Notes under the pieces: generated by a model
Database searches by the model: none
The model's input: the letters and a program-made list of their open reading frames with translations, nothing else
Told to the model about the DNA's origin: nothing
Source: an uncultured candidatus Brocadiaceae bacterium
GTDB lineage: Bacteria > Planctomycetota > UBA11346
Length of the DNA: 64,000 nucleotides
Direction: 5' to 3'
Assembly: GCA_964612995.1 (NCBI GenBank)
Contig: CAZTGE010000001.1
Coordinates: 15,985 to 79,984, forward strand
Part shown: piece after piece, positions 1 to 45,037 of the stretch
Layout: each line of letters starts with the position of its first letter
How positions within the stretch are numbered: the first letter of the stretch is position 1
Made by a program: the position numbers and the translations under genes

Positions 1-1221
1 GTCGCCCTGTGCGACAGCAACCCTCTGCGCATGGAGGCGCGCAACCGGCTCTACGCCGAGGAACATGGCGCCGACCCCATCCAGACCTACACCCCCGATC
101 GCTTCGACGCGATGATCGCCGAACAGCGGGTCGACTGCGTCATCGTCACCTCAATCGATCGCACCCATCACCGTTATATCATCCGCGCGATGGAGCTCGG
201 CTGCGACGCGATCACCGAGAAACCGATGACCGTCGACGCCGAGAAATGCCAGGCCATCCTCGACTGCCAACGCCGTACCGGCCGTCGGCTCACCGTCACC
301 TTCAATTACCGCTATTCGCCGCGCAACAGCAAGGTCAAGCAGCTGCTGATGGACGGGGCCATCGGCACAGTCAACTCGGTCCACTTCGAATGGCTGCTCG
401 ACACCCGCCACGGCGCCGACTACTTCCGGCGCTGGCACCGCGACAAGCGCAATTCCGGCGGGCTGATGGTCCACAAATCCACCCATCACTTCGATCTGGT
501 CAACTGGTGGCTGGACTCGACGCCGCGTACCGTGTTCGGTATGGGCGACCTGATGTTCTACGGCCGCGAGAACGCCGAGGCGCGCGGCGTGACCACATTC
601 TACGATCGCGGCACCGACAACCCCAACGCTGCCGGGGATCCCTTCGCCCTCGACCTCCGCTCGGCAGAGAAGCTCGAGCAGCTCTATCTCGACTGCGAAT
701 CGGCCGACGGCTATCGCCGCGACATGTCGGTGTTCGGCGACTGCATCTCGATCGAAGACGACATGGCTGTACTGGTCCGCTACGCCACCGGCGCGACCAT
801 GAGCTACCACCTCACCGCCTACTCGCCGTGGGAGGGCTACCGCGTGGCCTTCAACGGCACGGCCGGCCGACTCGAGTACGAGGTCCACGAGAAGAGTTAC
901 GTCTCCGGCGACGATCAGGACGCCAACCGACCGGACATCCGCGACAGCCGCGAAATCGACATTGAGGAACCCGCCCGGATCCTGGTGCGCCCGCACTGGG
1001 CCAAGCCGATGGAGATCGATGTCGAGATCGCCAAGGGCGGTCACGGCGGCGGCGACGTGCGCCTGCTCGAAGATGTCTTCGGCAAGCGCAAGCCCGATCC
1101 GCTCGGCCGCGCTGCCGACCACATCGATGGCGCGCGTTCGATCCTCACCGGCATCGCGGCCAACCGCAGCTTCGCCACCGGCCTGCCGGTCGAGGTCGAC
1201 AGCCTGGTCCGGCTCGACTGA
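1..1221 (+). CDS. Gfo/Idh/MocA-family NAD(P)-dependent oxidoreductase, 5' end outside window (partial)
   Basis: Reading frame is open from base 1 and stops at 1221. Translation shows the pattern typical of the Gfo/Idh/MocA dehydrogenase C-terminal domain (EKPM, NYRYSP, conserved HF and WL). The first M in the track (31) is internal. Confidence 0.8.
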   Translation, partial: VALCDSNPLRMEARNRLYAEEHGADPIQTYTPDRFDAMIAEQRVDCVIVTSIDRTHHRYIIRAMELGCDAITEKPMTVDAEKCQAILDCQRRTGRRLTVTFNYRYSPRNSKVKQLLMDGAIGTVNSVHFEWLLDTRHGADYFRRWHRDKRNSGGLMVHKSTHHFDLVNWWLDSTPRTVFGMGDLMFYGRENAEARGVTTFYDRGTDNPNAAGDPFALDLRSAEKLEQLYLDCESADGYRRDMSVFGDCISIEDDMAVLVRYATGATMSYHLTAYSPWEGYRVAFNGTAGRLEYEVHEKSYVSGDDQDANRPDIRDSREIDIEEPARILVRPHWAKPMEIDVEIAKGGHGGGDVRLLEDVFGKRKPDPLGRAADHIDGARSILTGIAANRSFATGLPVEVDSLVRLD

Positions 1222-1459
1222 CTGCAGAGGGGGCGCTGCCCCCTCGCGCCTGCGGCGCGTACCCCCACGGCCTCGGTCGTCGCTCGCCAGCTACGCTGGC
1301 GTTCTCGGCGGGCCTGAGGCCCATTTTCGCCGAGAAACGCGCCTCGGTCGGCCGGTCGCACAGCCAAGTTTGGCGGTGCTCCTTCCTGCAGAGGGGGCGC
1401 TGCCCCCTCGCGCCTGCGGCGCGTACCCCCACGGCCTCGGTCGTCGCTCGCCAGCTACG
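1222..1459. repeat. REP-like intergenic repeat family A: two identical 74-bp copies (1222-1295, 1386-1459) in tandem with 164-bp period. Each contains the hairpin GAGGGGGC-GCT-GCCCCCTC.
   Basis: Exact 74-nt duplication visible directly. The 1226-1343 segment is the reverse complement (about 85% identical) of 38706-38817. Related copies occur at 20145-20218 and 44180-44264. Confidence 0.7.
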
Positions 1460-1539
1460 GATGTGCGGCTTCGGCACTTTGCGGTCTCCGCTTCGACTGA
1501 GCCGCGGCTCGCGGCTTGCCGCCGTGGCGCCGACCACGT

Positions 1540-1854
1540 ATGGTCGGTGCCATGGCTGGCTTCCGCTACAAGGCACGCAACCAGAATGGTGAGATCGTCA
1601 CCGGCATCGTCGCTGCCGACGATCTCGAAGCCGCCCGCCTGCGGGTGATCGGGCGGGGGCTCGAGGTGATCACGATCACCCGCCCGGTGCTCAAGCAGGC
1701 CCCGCCGCCGACTGCGCCGCCACCAACGCATCACGCGCGCAACCTGGCCCTGGCGCTGTCCGTGGGGTTGCTGATCGCCGCCGTCGCGCTGCTGTGGCTC
1801 GACCCCTACGACTGGGGCTGGGGCGACGCCCTGCGCACGCGACTCGGTCTCTGA
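1540..1854 (+). CDS. small hypothetical protein: GspF/PilC N-terminal-like cytoplasmic domain plus one TM helix
   Basis: ORF 1516-1854. MAGFRYKARNQNGEIVTGIVAADDLEAARLRVIGRGLEVITI resembles the first cytoplasmic domain of type II secretion / type IV pilus platform proteins. It is followed by a Pro-rich linker and a hydrophobic helix (LALALSVGLLIAAVALLWL). Start ambiguous (GTG 1540 / ATG 1552). Flanked by repeat elements. Confidence 0.4.
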   Translation: MVGAMAGFRYKARNQNGEIVTGIVAADDLEAARLRVIGRGLEVITITRPVLKQAPPPTAPPPTHHARNLALALSVGLLIAAVALLWLDPYDWGWGDALRTRLGL

Positions 1855-1869
1855 AGGCGACCAGAAAGT

Positions 1870-2030
1870 CGTGCCCACCCAAGGGCCCCTGCGCTCCCGC
1901 GCGTCAGGGGCGCAGGGGGCAGCCAGAGGCCCAGGGCGACTCAAAGCTCGCCCCGGGAGCGCCGAGCACCAGGAGTGAAGCAGGTGGAGGCGAGGCATGG
2001 CCCTCATGTGCGAGCTTTGAGCGGCCCTGG
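1870..2030. repeat. MITE-like repeat family B copy 1 (core 1940-2021 bounded by 11-nt terminal inverted repeats CTCAAAGCTCG / CGAGCTTTGAG)
   Basis: About 80% identical to 20247-20392. Shared core GCAGGTGGAGGCGAGGCATGGCCCTCAT(G/T)TGC(G/A)AGCTTTGAG. An upstream hairpin CCCCTGCGC...GCGCAGGGG is also present. Confidence 0.6.
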
Positions 2031-2050
2031 GCCAGAGGGCAGCACACCGA

Positions 2051-3318
2051 TTGACCATGCTCTCGGGCCGGCCTAGCATGAATAGTGGTTCCATGTCGTC
2101 CTCCACGCCTGCATCAGAGTCGTCAACATCCGGCGCCTGGCTCACGCTGGGGCTGATCGCCGGGCTGTTCCTCCTCGCCGCGCTCGGGCTCATCGGCCTG
2201 AGTGCATGGAGCTATGCGCGCACCAGCGCGGCCCTCCAGCACCCGCCGACGGTGTCGGAGCGACTGACCGTGCCTTGCACCCGCGACGGCGAACCCTGGC
2301 GCCTGGGCTGCTACCAGGGCGGCCCCTGGGTGGACTACCCGCTCCACCTCCACGCCGCATTGCTCGGCCTGCGCGATCGCGGCTGGCTGACCTGCAACCC
2401 GCCGACGGGGCCCGCGAGCGTCACCGCGCTGTGGGCCTGGCTCGCCGAACACGAGCGCGGACCCTACCTGCGATTCGTGCCAGCCGCCTGCTGGTCGGCC
2501 GGCTGGCGTGACGAGCAGCGGCGCACCCTGCGTCATGATTGCCTCGAACGCCTGCGCGCCGGCGAGCTCGATCTGGTGTTGGCGCTCGGCACCTGGGCCG
2601 GAGAGGACCTGGCCGTGGACGAGCACCGCACGCCGGTGGTCCTGCTTTCCGCCAGTGATCCCATCGCCGCCGGCATCGTCTCGCGCGATCCCACCGCCGA
2701 CCTGCCCCACGTCCACGCGATCCGCGATCCGGAACGCTACTACCGTCAGGCGAGCGTTTTTCACGACCTGATCGGCTTTCAGCGCCTGGGCGTGGTCTAC
2801 GACCCTTCGGCGGCGGGTCGCGTCTGGAGCAACCTGCCGGACCTCGAGCGTCTCGCCGCCGAGCGCGGCTTCGATCTTATCACCACAGCGGTGAGCGATG
2901 TCGACGCCTCGCTACCGCAGATCATCGCGTCGACCCACGACGCGTTTGCAGAGCTCGCACCCCGGGTCGACGCGGTGTGGATGGGGGCACACCAAGGCCA
3001 GAGCCCCGAGGCCCTGCCGCAGGTCATCGCCCCCCTGCTCGCAGCCCGCCTGCCCACCTGGGCCCAACAGGGGCGATGTGCGGTGGCCCAAGGGGTTCTG
3101 CTCGGCGCCGACGAGCGCAATCTGGCCCAGACCGGGCGCATCTACGCCACCGGCATCGCCGCCATGCTCAACGGGGCGGACGCGCGCCAGCTACCGCAGA
3201 TCTACATCGACCCCTGCCGCCTGGTGATCAACCATCAGGTCGCCGAACGCATCGGCTTCACCATCCCCAGCGCTCTGGCCGCGGTCGCCGACAGCCATCC
3301 GGACCCGGAGCGCCAGCA

Positions 3319-3322
<4 letters not shown>
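2051..3322 (+). CDS. periplasmic substrate-binding-like protein (ABC_sub_bind / PF04392-like), probable sensor partner of the downstream histidine kinase
   Basis: N-terminal hydrophobic anchor (WLTLGLIAGLFLLAALGLIGL). Body has the pattern of the uncharacterised ABC periplasmic component family (DLVLALGTWAG, VVLLSASDPIAAGIV). Stop overlaps the GTG start of the kinase (GTGA). True start could be ATG 2078 or 2093. Confidence 0.6.
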
Positions 3323-5559
<2,237 letters not shown>

Positions 5560-19839: not shown

Positions 19840-20144
19840 GGCTGCTCCTGCCTTCCATCTGTCCGGTTGGAGGGCTGTCGGGAAATCGTCCGGACGGTGC
19901 CAGGGCAGCCGGGCGACAAACGCCGGGGCCGGACGGATTCCCAGGGTGAATGGAATATGGACAAGAAGCGGGATGATGAGCATCGTGCGGATGCCGTCAA
20001 GCGAAGACGCTTCCATCAGAGCCCCCGCCGGCCCTGCGGGCCGGCGACGAAGAGCCAGGAACTTGGCCGCCCCGGACGTTTGTCGCAATGACGCGACCCG
20101 GACCGTGAGCGTGTCGAATGAGCGAGATGGTGTGCGGAGTTCCT

Positions 20145-20392
20145 GGGAAGGGGGCGCTGCCCCCTCGCGCCTTCGGCGCGTCCCAGCCTCCTCGCTGTCG
20201 CTCGTCGCGCTCCGCCGGCCCCACGCGCTTCGGCAAGGCAGGGCCGCTCAAAGCTCGCCCCGGGAGCGCCGATCACCAGGTCGGCATGCCTTGTGTCGCC
20301 TCCACCTGCGTCCAACCGCCCGGCTTTCTTTGGGCTTGGGCCATGGTGACGCAGGTGGAGGCGAGGCATGGCCCTCATTTGCAAGCTTTGAG
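20145..20392. repeat. composite repeat: family A copy (20145-20218) adjacent to family B MITE-like copy 2 (20247-20392, same terminal inverted repeats as 1940-2021 plus a 64-bp insert that creates the long hairpin CGCCTCCACCTGC...GCAGGTGGAGGCG)
   Basis: Direct sequence comparison with 1222-1295 and 1940-2021. It lies in the divergent intergenic region between acpP (minus) and kdsC (plus). Confidence 0.6.
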
Positions 20393-20449
20393 TCGCCCTG
20401 TTCAGCAGGGGACCAAGCGGATGGACTCGGCCGTGGTGGCCCCTAGCGT

Positions 20450-37208: not shown

Positions 37209-38138
37209 TTGGCAGCGCAGCGAAGGCGGCCACGATCGCGTTGTCCGATCGCGACCCCGCGTCGCACCCCGCCACTGCCGGAGCAAGCCCTGCGACTCCC
37301 CCTCTATCAGGTCGACGCCTTCAGCGCGCGGCGTTTCTCCGGCAATCCGGCTGCGGTGGTCTTGTGCGATGGGGCATTCCCGGCTACAGCGGTGATGCAG
37401 GCGGTGGCGGCTGAGAACAACCTCAGTGAAACCGCCTTCGTGAGCGGACCGGCGGCGGCACGCACGATCCGCTGGTTCACGCCCACGCTCGAGGTCGACC
37501 TCTGCGGCCACGCCACTCTGGCCGCGGCCCACGTGCTGCTGGTCGAGCGCGGCGAACCGGGTCCCCGACTGTCCTTCGCCTCGCGCTCGGGGCCGCTGCA
37601 CGTGAGGCAGGACGGCGCGCAGCTGTGGCTGGACTTCCCCGCCGATCCGCCATTCCCTGCCGCCGACCCGGAGGCGGTCGCCCGCGTGATCGGCGCGCAG
37701 CCCACGGCGGTGCTGCGCGGGCGTGAGGACCTGCTCGCGATCCTCTCCGACGCAGACGCGGTGCGTGCGCTATCACCGGATCCGGCCGCGGTCGCCGCGC
37801 TCGATGCGCGCGGGTTGATCGTCTCCGCGCCGGGCGATGACGGCGTCGACATCGTCTCGCGCTACTTCGCGCCGCAATGCGGCATCCCCGAGGATCCCGT
37901 GACCGGATCCGCCCATACCACCCTCACACCCTACTGGACCGCCCGCCTCGGGCGAACGAACCTGGCCGCGCGCCAGCTCTCACAGCGCGGCGGATCGCTG
38001 ACCTGCCGCCAGACCGGTGAGCGGGTGCACATCGGCGGTCAGGCCGTGACCTACCTCCGCGGCGAGATCGAAACCGCTGTTGCGAGCACGGACGGCCAGG
38101 CGACGACGTCGAAGACCGAGTCGGCTCCACACAACTGA
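37209..38138 (+). CDS. PhzF-family isomerase (phenazine biosynthesis-like protein)
   Basis: LPLYQVDAFSARRFSGNPAAVV matches the PhzF N-terminus. Also has the two-domain DAP-epimerase-like pattern and a C-terminal region with conserved D and G residues. The Arg/Pro-rich first 27 codons may not be translated. Confidence 0.8.
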   Translation: MAAQRRRPRSRCPIATPRRTPPLPEQALRLPLYQVDAFSARRFSGNPAAVVLCDGAFPATAVMQAVAAENNLSETAFVSGPAAARTIRWFTPTLEVDLCGHATLAAAHVLLVERGEPGPRLSFASRSGPLHVRQDGAQLWLDFPADPPFPAADPEAVARVIGAQPTAVLRGREDLLAILSDADAVRALSPDPAAVAALDARGLIVSAPGDDGVDIVSRYFAPQCGIPEDPVTGSAHTTLTPYWTARLGRTNLAARQLSQRGGSLTCRQTGERVHIGGQAVTYLRGEIETAVASTDGQATTSKTESAPHN

Positions 38139-38157
38139 CCGAGGGGCTCACCGCACG

Positions 38158-38598
38158 ATGAACGATCCCATGGTCCGCATCGGCAGCTTCGATGACCTCA
38201 CCCGGGCCAAGATGGCGCAGAACCTGCTCGCGCTCGCGGACATCCCCACCCATCTGGCCAACGAACACGGTGCGCGCTATGCCCATGGCCTGTTGCTGCC
38301 GCAGCAGTGCAGTTACGACCTCTATATCCCCCGCGCGCAGCTGGCCGCGGCCCACGCGATACTTGCGCGCCAGGGGCCGGAGCAAGCGCTGAGGGAAGAC
38401 TGCGCCGTCGGAGAGCTGCCCGAGGACGAACGCTACGACGATGCCGAGGCGCTACGTGATCCCTGCCCCGAGTGCGGCTCGCGTTGCGTCGGCCCGCACT
38501 ATCCGCTCCGACCGCTGGTGATCCTCAGCGGCGGCCTGCTGTTCCCGCTCCTGCTCTATCGTCGGCATCGCTGCCGTGCATGCGGCCATCGGTGGTGA
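38158..38598 (+). CDS. DUF2007-like protein with a C-terminal Cys4 zinc-ribbon and a hydrophobic segment
   Basis: ATG 38158. MVRIGSFDDLTRAKMAQNLLALADIPTHLANE matches the DUF2007 (putative signal-transducing) pattern. C-terminus has CPECG...CRACG. Confidence 0.55.
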   Translation: MNDPMVRIGSFDDLTRAKMAQNLLALADIPTHLANEHGARYAHGLLLPQQCSYDLYIPRAQLAAAHAILARQGPEQALREDCAVGELPEDERYDDAEALRDPCPECGSRCVGPHYPLRPLVILSGGLLFPLLLYRRHRCRACGHRW

Positions 38599-38705
38599 TC
38601 CCGCACATCGGGATCAGCGACAGATCAGACGAGGCCCTCACAGGTCGCAGTGAAGCGCTCGCAAGGCACACATCGCGAGTAGCGGGTCGGCCGACCGAGG
38701 AACGA

Positions 38706-38817
38706 TTTTCGGCGAAAATGGCGCGTAGCGCCGCCGAAAACGCCAGCGCAGCTGGCGAGTGACAACCGAGGCCGTGGGGGTACGCGGCGAAGCCGCGAGG
38801 GGGCAGCGCCCCCTCTG
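38706..38817. repeat. REP-like repeat family A/C element (forward orientation), ending in the hairpin CGAGGGGGCAGCGCCCCCTC
   Basis: About 85% identical to the reverse complement of 1226-1343. It lies in the convergent intergenic region between the DUF2007 gene and nadE. Confidence 0.6.
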
Positions 38818-38868
38818 AGGGGAGCGGCAGATCAGCGATCTGGCAGCGTTCCATCGCGCGCGTCGATC

Positions 38869-40485
38869 TCAGTCGGAATCGATCCTGCGGGCCAGGGGCA
38901 GCCGGCGACCGACGCCGAAGGCCTTGCTGGTGACGCGGAGGGTGGGCGGCGCCTGACGACGTTTGTACTCGCTGGTTTCGACCATCCGCACCACCCGGTC
39001 GACCACGCTCTGCTCCTCGCCGGCGGCGACCAGCTCCTCGCGGCCGGCGCCGTGTTCGATGTAGGCCTCGAGGATGCGGTCGAGCACCGGATAGGGCGGC
39101 AGGCTGTCGGTGTCGACCTGGCCCGGGCGCAACTCGGCCGACGGGGGTTTGAGGATCGTGTTGCGGGGGATGCGCTCGCGTTCGTGGTTGAGGTGCCCGG
39201 CAAGGGCGAAGACCCGGGTCTTGTAGACGTCGCCGATCGGCGCCAGCCCGCCGTTCATGTCGCCGTACATGGTGCAGTAGCCGACCGCGAGCTCGCTCTT
39301 GTTCCCGGTGGCCAGCGCCATGGCGCGATGCTTGTTGGCGTAGGCCATGACCAGGGTACCGCGGATGCGGGCCTGGATGTTCTCTTCGGCCACCCCGGCG
39401 TCGGTGCCGGCGAAGGGCTCGGCGAGCGTGGCCGTGATCGCGTCGTAGGACCCGATGATCGGGCAGCGGTAGGCGCGGATGCCCAGGTTGTCGGCCAGGG
39501 CCTGGGCGTCGGTCACCGATTCGGGTGACGAGTGCATGCTCGGCATCAACAGCCCGGTGACGCCCTCTGCGCCGAGCGCATCGACCGCGAGAACGGCGCA
39601 GAGGGCGGAATCGATCCCGCCGGAGAGACCGAGGACCACGCGATCCTGTCCGGTCTTGGCGCAATAGTCGCGAAGGCCGGTGACCAGCGCCTGATGCAGA
39701 TCCGCGAGCTCGTCGATCGCAGCGGGGGGCTGACCTGGGGCGGCGGTATCGATCACCGCGAGGTCCTCACGCCACCGTTGCAGATGGCCGTACCAGGTTC
39801 CGTCCGGGCCGACCACCCCGCTGTCACCGTCGAAGAGCAGTTCGTCGTAGCCGCCGACCTGGTTGACGTAGACCACCGGGGCGCCGACCCGCTGCGCGAC
39901 GTCGGCGATCAACCGGCGGCGCAAGGCGGGTTTGTTGGCGTTGTAGGGGCTGGCCGAAACGTTGACCACCAGGTCGCAGGCACCGACGAGATCGACGACC
40001 GGATCGCGCTCGTAGGTCGCGGGAGCCAGGGCGCCGGTCCAGATGTCTTCGCAGACGCTCAACGCCACGCGCGCGCCAGCGATCTCCACCACCATCGGCT
40101 CCGCGCCGGGCTGGAAGTAGCGGACCTCGTCGAAAACGTCGTAGGAGGGCAGCAAGCGCTTGCGATAGACCTGGGCCACGCGTGTGTCGGCGAGCAGGGC
40201 GAGGGCGTTGCCGAGATCGGCCGCGTCCTCGCCGGGGTGCACGCAGCCGATCAGGGTCGGCAACTCCAGCGTGCCGGCGAGACGGTGGATCATCTCCCAC
40301 TGCGCGCGGATCAGGCTGCGGCGATGGAGCAGGTCGCGTGGCGGATACCCGAGACTGGCCAACTCTGGCAACACCAGCAACTCGGCGCCCGCCGCCAGGG
40401 CGCGGTCGTGACACAGGCGGATGTCGCGGGCGATTCCATCCAGATCGGCGACCAGGACGTTGCGTTGGGCCAGGGCGATGCGCAT
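38869..40485 (-). CDS. nadE: glutamine-dependent NAD+ synthetase (N-terminal CN-hydrolase domain plus NAD synthetase domain)
   Basis: MRIALAQRNVL start (ATG 40485). Nitrilase-family catalytic pattern in the first half. PP-loop SGGIDS in the second half. The longer 808-aa track ORF upstream of this ATG is Arg-rich and was treated as noise. Confidence 0.9.
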   Translation of the reverse strand: MRIALAQRNVLVADLDGIARDIRLCHDRALAAGAELLVLPELASLGYPPRDLLHRRSLIRAQWEMIHRLAGTLELPTLIGCVHPGEDAADLGNALALLADTRVAQVYRKRLLPSYDVFDEVRYFQPGAEPMVVEIAGARVALSVCEDIWTGALAPATYERDPVVDLVGACDLVVNVSASPYNANKPALRRRLIADVAQRVGAPVVYVNQVGGYDELLFDGDSGVVGPDGTWYGHLQRWREDLAVIDTAAPGQPPAAIDELADLHQALVTGLRDYCAKTGQDRVVLGLSGGIDSALCAVLAVDALGAEGVTGLLMPSMHSSPESVTDAQALADNLGIRAYRCPIIGSYDAITATLAEPFAGTDAGVAEENIQARIRGTLVMAYANKHRAMALATGNKSELAVGYCTMYGDMNGGLAPIGDVYKTRVFALAGHLNHERERIPRNTILKPPSAELRPGQVDTDSLPPYPVLDRILEAYIEHGAGREELVAAGEEQSVVDRVVRMVETSEYKRRQAPPTLRVTSKAFGVGRRLPLARRIDSD

Positions 40486-40595
40486 CGGGCGTCCTTCCGG
40501 CGGTGGGCGTGGGCCGAGGCGGCCTGGGGCGAGTCTCGTGCCCTCGTGAAGCGGTCCAGGAGCGATTGCTGGACCGGCCCGCCCCCCGGCAGACA

Positions 40596-41339
40596 ATGGA
40601 CGATGAGGAGATCGCCATGCGCATCCTCCCAGTCCTGCTGACGCTCGCGACGGTGGCCTCGGCGCCGGCCTTCGATCCCGGGCCGCCACCACGCTCGCTC
40701 CCCGCGCCACGCATCGCCCCCGTGGACGCCGCGACGCCGGATCCGACGCTCGCGCTACCACCGCTGACCCGTGATCAGGCGCTGGCGATCTGCCGTTCGC
40801 TGCAGCACATGCGCCAGGAGCAGCCGGCGCTCCACGCCCGGCTCGACAGCAGCGGCGATCAGCGGCTCGACGCCGACGAGCTACACGGTCTCGCCGGACA
40901 ACGCGCCGACGAACTGGTGGCGCTGATCGACAGCGACGGCGACGCCGCGCTCGACGCGACCGAGATCGATCACGCGCTCGCGGTCGCCGACGCCACGAAG
41001 GCCGAGGAGCGCGCGGCGTCGGCTGCCGCCCTGGCGACCGAACGCCCCGTCCCCCTGGCTCCGGTGGCCTCGCGCCTGACCATCGGCAGTGCCCGACGCT
41101 GCGTCGTCGATTACGACGTGGTCGACGGGCACTACGACCCGGTGGTCCGTTGGCTACCCAGCGGCAGCGGCGTGAGTGTGTCCGGCGGCAGCGTGGCCTT
41201 CTGGCACACCCCGACCTGCCGCCCGCGAGTGATCCGCCGACGGGTGGTGCCGCGAACACAGATACGCCGCCGGGTGGTGCCGCGATCGAGGCCAAGCCCC
41301 CAGGCTCCGCGTCGGGTGGTGCGACCGCTCGAACGCTGA
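40596..41339 (+). CDS. secreted protein with EF-hand-like calcium-binding loops and a C-terminal tandem RRVVPR repeat
   Basis: Signal peptide MRILPVLLTLATVASAPA (alternative start 40617). DSSGDQRLDADE and DSDGDAALDATEID resemble EF-hand loops. DNA tandem repeat at about 41231-41290. Confidence 0.5.
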   Translation: MDDEEIAMRILPVLLTLATVASAPAFDPGPPPRSLPAPRIAPVDAATPDPTLALPPLTRDQALAICRSLQHMRQEQPALHARLDSSGDQRLDADELHGLAGQRADELVALIDSDGDAALDATEIDHALAVADATKAEERAASAAALATERPVPLAPVASRLTIGSARRCVVDYDVVDGHYDPVVRWLPSGSGVSVSGGSVAFWHTPTCRPRVIRRRVVPRTQIRRRVVPRSRPSPQAPRRVVRPLER

Positions 41340-42924: not shown

Positions 42925-44160
42925 TCATTCCTCCTCGGTGGGATGGATCGGCAGATCCGCCGACCGGATCAGTTCGACCCGTGACCAGGGTTCGCCCGGT
43001 GACTCGGGCCAGTCGAGGATGGCGCGGCCATCGTGGACGACGATGTGCGCACCGGGCGGTTGCTCGCGGTCACCGTAGGGCCAGCGTGCCAGGTCTTCCG
43101 GCTTGCGCAAACGCGGCCACCCGTGAGCTGCCGCACGACGGTTGAGCTGCTCCAACCAGCGATCGTAGTCGGCGTAGGCCAGGCCCCGGCTGCTGACCTG
43201 TCCGTCTTCGATGCGGTAAGGCCAGCCGTAGGGATCGCTGCGCAGGACCACGCGCTCGTCGACCACCGCGAGCGGCTCGGGGCCGAGGTCGCGGGCCCGG
43301 CTGCCGTAGACCGTGCGCAACACATCCGGATCGAGCAGATCGCTGAGCTGGGCCGGCGCACGGTCGTACCGGGCGCGGTAGGCATCAGCGAGCTCCTGCA
43401 GCCGCTTGACCCCATAGCTGGCATACTGCTCGCGCAGGGTGCGCTCGGCCAGCCGGCCCTGGGGACTCGCGGAGCTGGAGACGCGCAACACGTCACCCCA
43501 GTAGGTCAGCTGCCCGAGGCCACCGGCACGGCGTCGGGCCATGGCCTGGATCCAGGCCTGGGCCCAGGTCCGCCCCACGCGTTCGTCGCCGGCATCGGTC
43601 TCGCGATCGGCCCATTGGATCAACACGTCGAACAGCGCCTGGGGATTGTCGCGCTCGAGGTGGAAATCGTCGCTGAGCACCACGACCAGGTTGCGCCACA
43701 GCAGCAGATCGTCCGGATGCTCGAACACCCCGCGGCAGAGGAAGCGCAGCTGGGCATGGGCGTCCATCACCACCGAACCGGTGGTCATCGCACCGTAGTG
43801 GTAAAAAGGTACGAACTGCGGATCCATGGCGATCAGCGCGTCGTAGAGGCGGCGGAAACTGCCACGATGCTCGGCGAGCACGTCGGCGCGCTCGCCGAGC
43901 GGCAGATCGAGGCAGTAATTGAAGTAGCGGTAGCTGGAGATCCACCACAGGCGCGAGACGGTGTTGGTGTGGCCGAAAGCCAGCAGACGCGAGACCTGCG
44001 GACCGGGCAGATATTCCAGGCGCCGATCCTTGCTCATGCCGTAATATGGCCGATCGAGCGACAGCACGAAGCGGAACGGGGCGAGGTTGATCCAGTAGAT
44101 ACCCGCTCCGAGGCCGGCGATGAGCGCCGCCAGCACCACACTGCCGGGCCGGATCCTCAT
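42925..44160 (-). CDS. hypothetical membrane-anchored protein (411 aa)
   Basis: N-terminal TM (SVVLAALIAGLGAGIYWI), then a large Trp/Tyr-rich domain. No family recognised. Confidence 0.5.
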   Translation of the reverse strand: MRIRPGSVVLAALIAGLGAGIYWINLAPFRFVLSLDRPYYGMSKDRRLEYLPGPQVSRLLAFGHTNTVSRLWWISSYRYFNYCLDLPLGERADVLAEHRGSFRRLYDALIAMDPQFVPFYHYGAMTTGSVVMDAHAQLRFLCRGVFEHPDDLLLWRNLVVVLSDDFHLERDNPQALFDVLIQWADRETDAGDERVGRTWAQAWIQAMARRRAGGLGQLTYWGDVLRVSSSASPQGRLAERTLREQYASYGVKRLQELADAYRARYDRAPAQLSDLLDPDVLRTVYGSRARDLGPEPLAVVDERVVLRSDPYGWPYRIEDGQVSSRGLAYADYDRWLEQLNRRAAAHGWPRLRKPEDLARWPYGDREQPPGAHIVVHDGRAILDWPESPGEPWSRVELIRSADLPIHPTEEE

Positions 44161-44179
44161 CGCCGGCCCTCCCGACCGC

Positions 44180-44264
44180 CGGAAACGCCAGCACAGCTGG
44201 CGAGCGACGACAGAGGACGAGGGGGTGAAGTGACGAAGGAGCGAGGGGGCAGAGCCCCCCCTGC
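44180..44264. repeat. divergent copy of repeat family A (GCCGGAAACGCCAGCACAGCTGGCGAGCGACGA...GAGGGGGCAGAGCCCCC hairpin)
   Basis: Shares the CGCCAGC-CAGCTGGCGAG-GAC block and the terminal G5C/GC5 hairpin with 38706-38817. Confidence 0.45.
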
Positions 44265-44278
44265 AAAAAAGTCCCCCG

Positions 44279-45037
44279 TCATAACTGCCGCCGACGGAAG
44301 ATGGCCAGGGTGACGGTGAGCAACAGGGCGATCCACAGCAGCCCGTAGGCCACGGTCATCGCCGCCTCGGCCGGAGCCAGGCCCAGGCCGTGGACCGCCT
44401 GGTTGCGGTAGGCGTAACGCCCGAGATCCGGCATCAACGAGGCGAGCACGGCGATCAGCCACTGGGCGGTATCGTTCTTCACATAGGCGAGGAAACCGGG
44501 CAGCTCGTGGACCGCGTGGCCGAGGCCGTAGGTGGCCAGACTCAGCGCCGCCGCGAGCAGCGGGGTCGAGAGTGTGGTCCAGCACAGGCTCACCGCGGCC
44601 ATGATCACGACCTCCTCCGCGGTCAGCAGGCCCGCGAGCACCAGCAGCGGCGTGACCGGAGCACCGGTGACCCAGAGGTAGATCAACGACAGGGTGAGCA
44701 TCGCCAACTGACCGCAGAGCAGCGCGGCAGCCAGACCGCAGAACTTGCCGATCACGAACTGCCAGCGGGCGATGGGGCGGCTGAGCACGGTGTAGAGGGT
44801 CCGCTGCTGGATCTCCATGTGCATCAGCGCGGTGCCGGTGGCCACCGCGACCAGCAGACCGATGATGCTCTGCAGGCTGAGCACGATGTCGGTCGTGACC
44901 AGGTCGCCGTCGGTGGCGCTGATGTAGCCGATCAGCCGCGACAGGGTCATGAAGACGACGAACAACGAGAGCAGCCCGATGAAACTGCGGCTGCGCAGAC
45001 TCTCGCGCAGGGTGGCGCCGGCGACGGTGAGGATCAC
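44279..45037 (-). CDS. ABC-2-family transporter permease (6 TM)
   Basis: GTG 45037 overlaps the ATPase stop. Uniformly hydrophobic, 252 aa. The longer track ORF upstream is an antisense read-through of the ATPase gene. Confidence 0.7.
   Translation of the reverse strand: MILTVAGATLRESLRSRSFIGLLSLFVVFMTLSRLIGYISATDGDLVTTDIVLSLQSIIGLLVAVATGTALMHMEIQQRTLYTVLSRPIARWQFVIGKFCGLAAALLCGQLAMLTLSLIYLWVTGAPVTPLLVLAGLLTAEEVVIMAAVSLCWTTLSTPLLAAALSLATYGLGHAVHELPGFLAYVKNDTAQWLIAVLASLMPDLGRYAYRNQAVHGLGLAPAEAAMTVAYGLLWIALLLTVTLAIFRRRQL

Follow-up and report, generated by a model that had tools for sequence, protein, structure and literature searches.

A 64-kb window of DNA from an uncultured Planctomycetota bacterium (contig CAZTGE010000001.1; the window is the whole stretch of 64,000 nt analysed here) holds five copies of a repeat, family A, at four intergenic sites. 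Family A is very probably a non-autonomous miniature inverted-repeat transposable element (MITE) of this uncultured lineage. It is small and non-coding, carries conserved terminal inverted repeats, is flanked by a duplication of characteristic length, and occurs in many scattered copies, with sites that are filled in some relatives and empty in others. Complete copies measure 125-290 nt and are built from palindromes, devoid of coding capacity, and wholly intergenic. In brief, the element begins with GGCTTCCYTCAGAG at its 5' end and finishes with CTCTGAGGGACCCG at its 3' end, and ~10 bp of a target with the palindromic consensus TCA-N4-TGA are duplicated on insertion.

Termini and mosaic interior of family A

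The 5' end reads (G)GCTTCC(C/T)TCAGAG and leads directly into hairpin 1 (GAGGGGGC-GCT-GCCCCCTC); the 3' end reads G(A/G)GCTCTGAGGGACCCG. We found that the two ends are inverted repeats, as GAGGCTTCCCTCAGAG at the 5' end matches the reverse complement of the 3' end, GACGGGTCCCTCAGAG, at 13 of 16 positions, and the core of the terminal repeat (TCCCTCAGAG/CTCTGAGGGA) matches at 10 of 10. Both termini are common to the complete copies of a sister-species metagenome-assembled genome (MAG), to copy c4 of the window, and to a copy from a metagenome contig (L083). They are kept across variants with three alternative 3' tails and differing interiors. A sequence-only reading of the window had let the repeat unit end in the palindrome GAGGGGGC-N3-GCCCCCTC; this palindrome instead stands at the 5' end of the element, immediately inward of the terminal repeat.

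The interior of the element is a mosaic. Hairpin 1 is followed by hairpin 2 (GCGCC-TNC-GGCGC) and, optionally, by a 71-nt three-helix module, which is bounded by the 9-nt direct repeat CCTC(G/T)GTCG (CCTCGGTCG) and contains, besides a closing helix and hairpin 3, a hairpin 4 that has an inner stem and leaves CATTTT unpaired. This module accounts for the difference between long (~210 nt) and short (~140 nt) forms, and the short forms that lack it (L023, L050, and L056) retain the ends. A nested module of ~125 nt (CCCAGCTGCGCTTGCTCCTCGC...CCGCCTCCGCC) interrupts family A at differing internal points (L018, L024, L048, L061, and others). It stands after hairpin 2 in some copies; in others it extends from hairpin 2 into hairpin 4, with the intervening sequence lost. 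A palindromic motif, GTAACTACTCA...TGAGTAGTTAC, also recurs beside or inside copies of the sister-species MAG (5' flanks of L040, L052, and L045; positions 221-257 of L042) and may belong to a further repeat family.

The window, which also corresponds to part of contig JBMCID010000002.1 (assembly GCA_048617035.1), has ~70% G+C and carries housekeeping genes (FabF/ACP, NadE, RodA, YbaB, IspE, KdsA, NrdD/G, and Bat/MoxR). Genes were called by third-position G+C and annotated by Pfam (~48 open reading frames, ORFs). A 30-nt degenerate pattern spanning the first two hairpins, GGGGGCNCTGCCCCCTCGCNNCTNCGNCNC, has exactly five matches in the window; 100 dinucleotide-preserving shuffles gave none. Together with alignments, this pattern bore out the five intergenic copies listed by the sequence-only reading. 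The stretches 1222-1295 and 1386-1459 are 100% identical over 74 nt, and 1225-1354 aligns with the opposite strand of 38688-38817 over 130 nt, at 87% identity. The diverged direct copy at 20143-20216 shows 68% identity without gaps (81% over 74 nt by BLAST), and 44165-44265 is ~81% identical. The features of the five copies, c1 to c5, are as follows.

1212..1221, plus strand: 5' target-site duplication GCTCGACTGA, including the TGA stop (1219-1221) of gene 31-1221
1222..1378, plus strand: copy c1, ~8 nt of the 5' terminus missing
1227-1245, 1246-1258, 1285-1301, and 1302-1336, plus strand: hairpins 1-4 of c1
1271-1279 and 1342-1350, plus strand: direct repeat CCTCGGTCG of c1
1280-1284 paired with 1340-1344, plus strand: closing helix of c1
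1379..1490, plus strand: copy c2, 5' terminus GCTCCTTCCTGCAGAG
1391-1409 and 1410-1422: hairpins 1 and 2 of c2, which has only the first half of hairpin 3
1491..1500, plus strand: 3' target-site duplication CTTCGACTGA, 8/10 identical to 1212-1221
20137..20220, plus strand: copy c3, a degenerate fragment with a decayed 5' terminus (7/13 positions)
~20148-20166 and 20167-20179: hairpins 1 and 2 of c3
38629..38827, minus strand: copy c4, a complete 199-nt element, 5' terminus CCGCTCCCCTCAGAG, 3' terminus CTGTGAGGGCCTCG
38621..38628, minus strand: c4 target duplication, 3' side, CTGATCTG on the element strand
38828..38835, minus strand: c4 target duplication, 5' side, CTGATCTG on the element strand
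44161..44278, minus strand: copy c5, old, with an internal deletion; keeps hairpins 1-3 and the first half of hairpin 4
44279..44282, minus strand: ATGA at the c5 5' junction (stop of the upstream gene), a remnant of the duplicated target

Copies c1 and c2 are two differently deleted elements fused in one 269-nt insert (1222-1490); the identical 74-nt stretches in them start 164 nt apart. The 3' tail of c1 is of type a, shortened and without the 3' terminal repeat. In c2, an internal deletion leaves the loop of hairpin 3 next to a tail of type b, whose 3' terminus is degenerate; the tail was assigned by eye in comparison with c4. Of the perfect tandem that had been described here, the identity stands, and the head-to-tail arrangement gives way to this fusion. 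The first 74 nt of c1 and c2 are identical though their tails come from different subfamilies, which points to local duplication or gene conversion rather than fresh transposition.

Copy c3 includes, at 20182-20220, a fragment of the nested ~125-nt module described above ("module C"), a second repeat module that is found in many copies of the sister-species MAG. Copy c4 contains hairpins 1-4, both CCTCGGTCG repeats, and a type-b tail; its flanking repeat matches at 8/10 positions in the standard register and at 9/10 with a 1-nt shift. Copy c5 takes up the entire spacer between an ABC-2 permease gene (stop codon at 44279-44281) and the next gene of the operon (ATG at 44158-44160), and a second ATGA at 44157-44160 holds the start codon of this downstream gene. 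The operon is conserved (ATPase, permease, a 411-aa protein, and YbaB), and its genes overlap in relatives. The extents first given for the last two copies were too short, as 38629-38827 is a complete element and 44161-44278 is the whole spacer. The intergenic placement given by the sequence-only reading holds for all copies, and its gene context is amended: c4 lies between the convergent genes for a DUF2007 protein (38080-38598, plus strand) and the NAD synthetase NadE (38869-41295, minus strand), and 20137-20220 lies between divergent genes. The other two sites, 1222-1490 (after gene 31-1221, a GFO/IDH/MocA oxidoreductase by Pfam match) and 44161-44278, lie between co-directional genes.

Target duplication, stop codons, and empty sites

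We examined the flanks of 10 complete elements. Three have a perfect 10/10 repeat at the standard position, two more become perfect after a shift of 1-2 nt, and two match at 9/10 positions, of which one needs a shift of 1 nt to do so. Counting any shift of 2 nt or less, 7/10 elements thus have flanking 10-mers identical at 9 or more positions, as compared to 0.4% of random pairs under the same shift search. The L083 element and the 1222-1490 insert also agree with a target duplication of ~10 bp. A duplication fixed at 9 bp, which would have hinted at a parent of the IS903 type, was given up in favour of 10 bp once the positions were tested one by one.

The flank logo of 78 copies shows T, C, and A at -23 to -21 (C at -22 in 49 copies and A at -21 in 46) and TGA at -16 to -14 in 33 copies, with another NGA in 19; the background of TGA is 1%. 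On the 3' side, a TGA ends exactly 12 nt past GAGGGNCC in 9 of 23 flanks. Thus, the logo is symmetric, and the target is a palindrome, TCA-N4-TGA, with a 10-bp duplication. The same symmetry ruled out an asymmetric target, with TGA on the 5' side only and an orientation-specific, non-DDE mechanism.

Because the target consensus holds TGA, copies are often found directly next to TGA stop codons. In six copies of the sister-species MAG (eight if a GC3 of 0.75-0.78 is accepted), the junction TGA terminates an ORF of 166-822 aa with high third-position G+C (GC3), and the same is true of the c1 and c5 sites of the window. This association needs no more explanation than a target that contains TGA and the loss of intragenic insertions. 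TGA being the common stop in this 70% G+C genome, selection would remove insertions within genes, and the survivors would pile up at stop codons. The duplication would leave the upstream gene its stop and, where genes overlap by ATGA, also leave the downstream gene its start. Copies further occur in tandem arrays, in which successive elements are parted by the same 10-mer (L032 200-565, TCTATACTGA; L042 2775-3016, TCAGACATGA). This fits repeated insertion into a target that is regenerated by each duplication. In L042, two elements of opposite orientation share one hairpin 1, and this head-to-head fusion is a perfect 25-nt palindrome, TCAGAGGGGGCGCTGCCCCCTCTGA.

A filled and an empty version of the first site could be compared directly. 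Contig L015 of the sister species, which is collinear with window positions 1-5545 at 82-90% nucleotide identity, lacks 1222-1490: the end of its oxidoreductase gene, ...CCTCGACTGA, is followed directly by TCGCCGCTCGCGGCTTGCC, which corresponds to the window from 1501. The target CCTCGACTGA is present once in L015, and the window has GCTCGACTGA, the 269-nt insert, and CTTCGACTGA. Thus, 1222-1490 is the filled counterpart of an empty site, with the stop codon within the duplication.

For c5, the prediction that the element had split an ATGA stop/start overlap was tested by a homologue search and by look-ups of the loci of relatives. In a distant relative (L090, 50% protein identity), the sequence reads ...CAGCTATGACC..., the two genes overlap by ATGA, and the site is empty. 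In L089 the site is also empty, with a spacer of 9 nt. In the sister species (L086 and L087), a longer and diverged copy occupies the site, with 83.5% identity to that of the window, so that this insertion predates the split of the two species. The 1222-1490 insertion is younger than that of c5, and the family has been active for a long time. An insertion elsewhere is seen in L083, where a complete element 92.6% identical to c4 has unrelated flanks and a duplication of its own, (CG)TCAACTGA. The recent mobility proposed earlier applies to the sister-species MAG, which has near-identical copies. It does not apply to the window, in which copies at different sites are only 81-87% alike and c5 is older than the species split.

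Spread, folding, and other explanations

In a scan of a collection of species-representative genomes, at least 78 stretches matched. Among the matches listed, 68 belong to the Planctomycetota MAG JBEPXK01 (GCA_041641915.1), two to the MAG CAYONM01, and eight to Rhodobacterales. JBEPXK01, the sister species, carries at least 73 copies in its 68 stretches (309 kb), and 53 of these (73% of those detected) run off a contig end, as high-copy repeats break short-read assemblies in this way. Family A is therefore dispersed, as the sequence-only reading had supposed, and is not a local duplication: a copy in an unrelated metagenome contig and the empty sites agree. The third MAG, CAYONM01 (L082 and L051), has a copy with ~24 extra nt after hairpin 2 and with compensatory helix sequences of its own. 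The "Brocadiaceae" label of CAYONM01 looks doubtful given DNA so rich in G+C. When metagenomes were scanned with a pattern specific to the subfamily of the window, a single match was obtained (L083, from a Joint Genome Institute, JGI, contig), which shows that the lineage is rare in that collection. Viral contigs gave no match to family A and thus no link to phages.

Near-identical assemblies of the same strain (L002-L004 and L085) showed no insertion polymorphism. In two of them, L002 and L003, contigs break at window positions 20036 and 20102, 40-105 nt before c3 and family B (a second repeat described below), which weakly suggests that the repeats at this place are multi-copy in the window's own genome too. 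The Rhodobacterales matches (L006, L025, L033, L054, L058, L065, L076, and L080) are a different repeat of ~150-200 nt with the same 40-nt double-hairpin head, GGGGGC-N3-GCCCCC TCGCG.CT.CG.CGC TCACCCCC. Beyond the head, the sequence is unrelated and forms a long AT-containing hairpin (GGGATATTT...AAATATCCC), three of the eight loci have hairpin 1 inverted at the end, and the Planctomycetota termini are absent. The common head could reflect either convergence or a shared module.

We next consider the helices. In an alignment of 23 distinct copies, with six named helices and 38 pairs, 99.3% of helix cells are paired, as compared to 42-58% when the partners are slid by 1-3 columns. Changes on both sides, between subfamilies, are found in 14 of the 38 pairs, and compensatory covariation in five of the six helices; shuffles never reached the observed values for four of five measures. 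Hairpin 3 occurs as CGCGGCC/GGCCGCG or CGCCAGC/GCTGGCG, the outer stem of hairpin 4 as TTTTCTGCG/CGCAGAAAA, TTTCCGCCG/CGGCGGAAA, or TTCTCGGCG/CGCCGAGAA, and the closing helix as GGGGT/ACCCC or CCCT/AGGG. L082 adds the variants CGCTCGC/GCGAGCG and TTTTGGGCG/CGCCCAAAA. All loops have 3 nt of free sequence, as is seen in palindromes at the DNA level. The four hairpins reappear in predicted folds, which are modestly more stable than shuffles (z -2.5 and -3.2). The shape of the hairpins rather than their sequence thus seems to be maintained, either by selection or by hairpin-templated correction; the latter could give the same covariation without selection.

A consensus scan for intrinsic terminators found none in or beside the copies. 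Hairpins 1 and 2 have no T run, and the inner stem of hairpin 4 is trailed only by ATTTT. A strong terminator role is unlikely at c5 (44161-44278), because the genes on both sides belong to a conserved operon. In c5, the decayed 3' terminus, TCGGGAGGGCCGGCG (44161-44175, minus strand), places GGGAGGG 6 nt upstream of the downstream ATG. The conserved 3' terminus (CTCTGAGGGA) has a Shine-Dalgarno-like motif, which a gene directly after an insertion could use. Effects on transcripts (3'-end protection, operon attenuation, and the GAGGGA ribosome-binding-like motif) are possible by-products. A scan for transfer RNA and transfer-messenger RNA genes found none in the window, and a full-text literature search for the hairpin sequence returned no paper.

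The sequence-only reading had assigned the repeats to the repetitive extragenic palindromes (REPs) and bacterial interspersed mosaic elements (BIMEs), a class that also takes in REPINs and is spread by a REP-associated tyrosine transposase (RAYT, IS200-like) and acts as terminator or mRNA stabiliser. Such an origin would account for GC-rich perfect palindromes (hairpins 1 and 2) that recur in intergenic DNA, often just past stops, for a mosaic interior, for copies that can cluster, and for the tetranucleotide CGTC at the 3' terminus (CCCGTC). REPs are, however, single palindromes of 20-40 bp that bear GTAG or CGTC as a tag, leave the target unduplicated, and are associated with RAYT genes (PMC3733652). 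The unit repeated here is 125-290 nt long, with defined termini, and its 19-nt and 13-nt palindromes never stand alone in the fetched copies, under a scan pattern that required both and did not search for isolated palindromes. Neither tag adjoins the palindromes: hairpin 1 is flanked by TCA and GCG, and hairpin 2 by TC and (A/G)(T/C)ACCCCC. Terminal inverted repeats and ~10-bp duplications are not produced by RAYT-type single-strand transposition, and the suggested association with RAYT found no counterpart among the ~48 window genes, in which Pfam detected no RAYT or Y1 transposase domain. With no canonical terminator found and c5 inside an operon, we regard REP/BIME membership as very improbable. 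A structured non-coding RNA gene or cis-regulatory RNA family, with spread as a secondary trait, would explain the strong compensatory covariation in five of six helices, the conserved unpaired CATTTT bulge and junction bases, and the stability of the folds. Against it, Rfam gave no match at the gathering score over the whole window and only chance-level ones at E up to 10, the copies face their neighbouring genes in every orientation, and the hairpins are perfect palindromes with free 3-nt loops. The module is dispensable, as short variants without it keep termini and duplications; no terminator was found, and the only promoter-like site in a promoter scan around the copies belongs to the gene after family B. 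Insertion polymorphism marks mobile DNA, and a primary RNA function is very improbable. As to a local segmental duplication or an assembly artefact of one contig, 1222-1295 and 1386-1459 are indeed identical and adjacent, and the source is a MAG. Family A nevertheless occupies four separate window sites, dozens of JBEPXK01 contigs, CAYONM01, and the JGI contig, all with different flanks, and the c4 region recurs at 99.96% identity in an independent assembly, which leaves this explanation a negligible probability.

Several points count against a MITE as well. No transposase of any kind was detected by Pfam among the ~48 window genes, and an all-against-all megablast of the fetched sister-MAG loci revealed no autonomous insertion sequence (IS), with no shared segment longer than 335 nt. 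The apparent length of the duplication varies from 8 to 13 bp when shifts are not applied; the complete element L023 shows no duplication, c3 has none that is recognisable, and c1 is without ~8 nt of its 5' terminus. The copy counts are those of the sister MAG JBEPXK01, not of the window's own genome, and the covariation comes from about four subfamilies, that is, from few independent events.

A second repeat, family B, is present at window positions 1932-2055 and 20239-20426, in copies 80-93% identical, each close to a copy of family A. It is a long imperfect palindrome (arms 20239-20258/20381-20400 and 20288-20312/20348-20372), and no copy was found among the fetched sister-MAG loci. The spacer 1855-2042, which includes family B, is mostly without counterpart in L015, where ~27 nt are found. 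Directly after family B, at 2051-2079 and before a gene starting near 2096, lies a promoter-like site (TTGACC, 17 nt, TAGCAT). The site is also kept in L015 (TTGACC...TAACAT), and thus family B was inserted just upstream of an existing promoter. At 1888-1920, between the stop of a small ORF and family B, there is a separate GC-rich palindrome, CCCCTGCGC-N-GCGCAGGGG, which is absent from L015 and has only chance-level Rfam matches.

Mechanism, implications, and known systems

If family A is a MITE, its termini would be recognised in trans by a transposase, probably a DDE enzyme with a dimer-symmetric target, which would make a 10-bp staggered cut. A dimeric cut-and-paste or copy-out enzyme of this putative class would be expected from the palindromic target and the 10-bp duplication. 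Candidate parents with 10-bp duplications are presumably to be sought in some IS4-family groups or ISAs1, and the termini together with the duplication provide a search key for the missing transposase. It is unlikely that the 71-nt module, in which all helices have compensatory changes and the unpaired CATTTT is invariant, and the 40-nt double-hairpin head are functional structures, either as a structure-specific recognition site of the mobilising enzyme or as an RNA module for operon processing or stability. If they were, the head shared with Rhodobacterales would point to a mobilisation or regulatory module that crosses phyla.

These results add a well-defined MITE family to a phylum in which small mobile repeats are barely described. 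They illustrate how a palindromic TGA-containing target and purifying selection lead to the accumulation of transposons exactly at stops, and how an element can separate translationally coupled genes (ATGA overlap) with neither gene damaged. Family A also explains the heavy fragmentation of MAGs in this lineage, and its filled and empty sites can serve as markers of strain and species history. The stop-hugging target, the split ATGA overlap, and the covarying module are attractive, though not surprising in principle.

No sequence relationship of family A to the MITEs MITEAba12, YPAL, or Correia was found. ISAba12, the parent of MITEAba12, belongs to the IS5 family (IS903 group). MITEAba12 resembles family A in a 16-bp terminal repeat starting with GGCTT and in a duplication of fixed length, and it is mobilised in trans by a resident DDE transposase (PMC6382973). 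In contrast to family A, it duplicates 9 bp and prefers A+T without any consensus at the target (PMC6382973), and the likeness of the termini ends at GGCTT. YPAL/RU-2 of Yersinia is also G+C-rich for a MITE, with strong internal dyads, a variable apparent duplication, and filled and empty sites; its duplications, however, vary between 3 and 26 bp, and it has internal inverted repeats (PMC2229807), whereas the ends of family A are terminal and ~10 bp of a palindromic target are duplicated.

REP, BIME, and REPIN elements share with family A extragenic GC-rich palindromes, often downstream of genes, and mosaic combinations, and the hairpins of both may affect mRNA 3' ends similarly. They differ in size, terminal repeats, target duplication, tag, and the RAYT gene, of which the window has none. 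Correia elements (NEMIS), the MITEs of Neisseria, are likewise small, non-coding, and high-copy, with terminal inverted repeats and target duplications (PMC2229807). An internal block separates their short and long forms (107 and 155 bp; PMC2229807), as the 71-nt module does the ~140- and 210-nt forms of family A. They are frequently co-transcribed with neighbouring genes (PMC2229807), a likeness that would extend to family A. Whereas Correia elements are A+T-rich, duplicate TA, and have repeats of ~24 bp (PMC2229807), family A has ~70% G+C, a ~10-bp duplication at TCA-N4-TGA, repeats of ~14-16 nt, and several perfect triloop palindromes.

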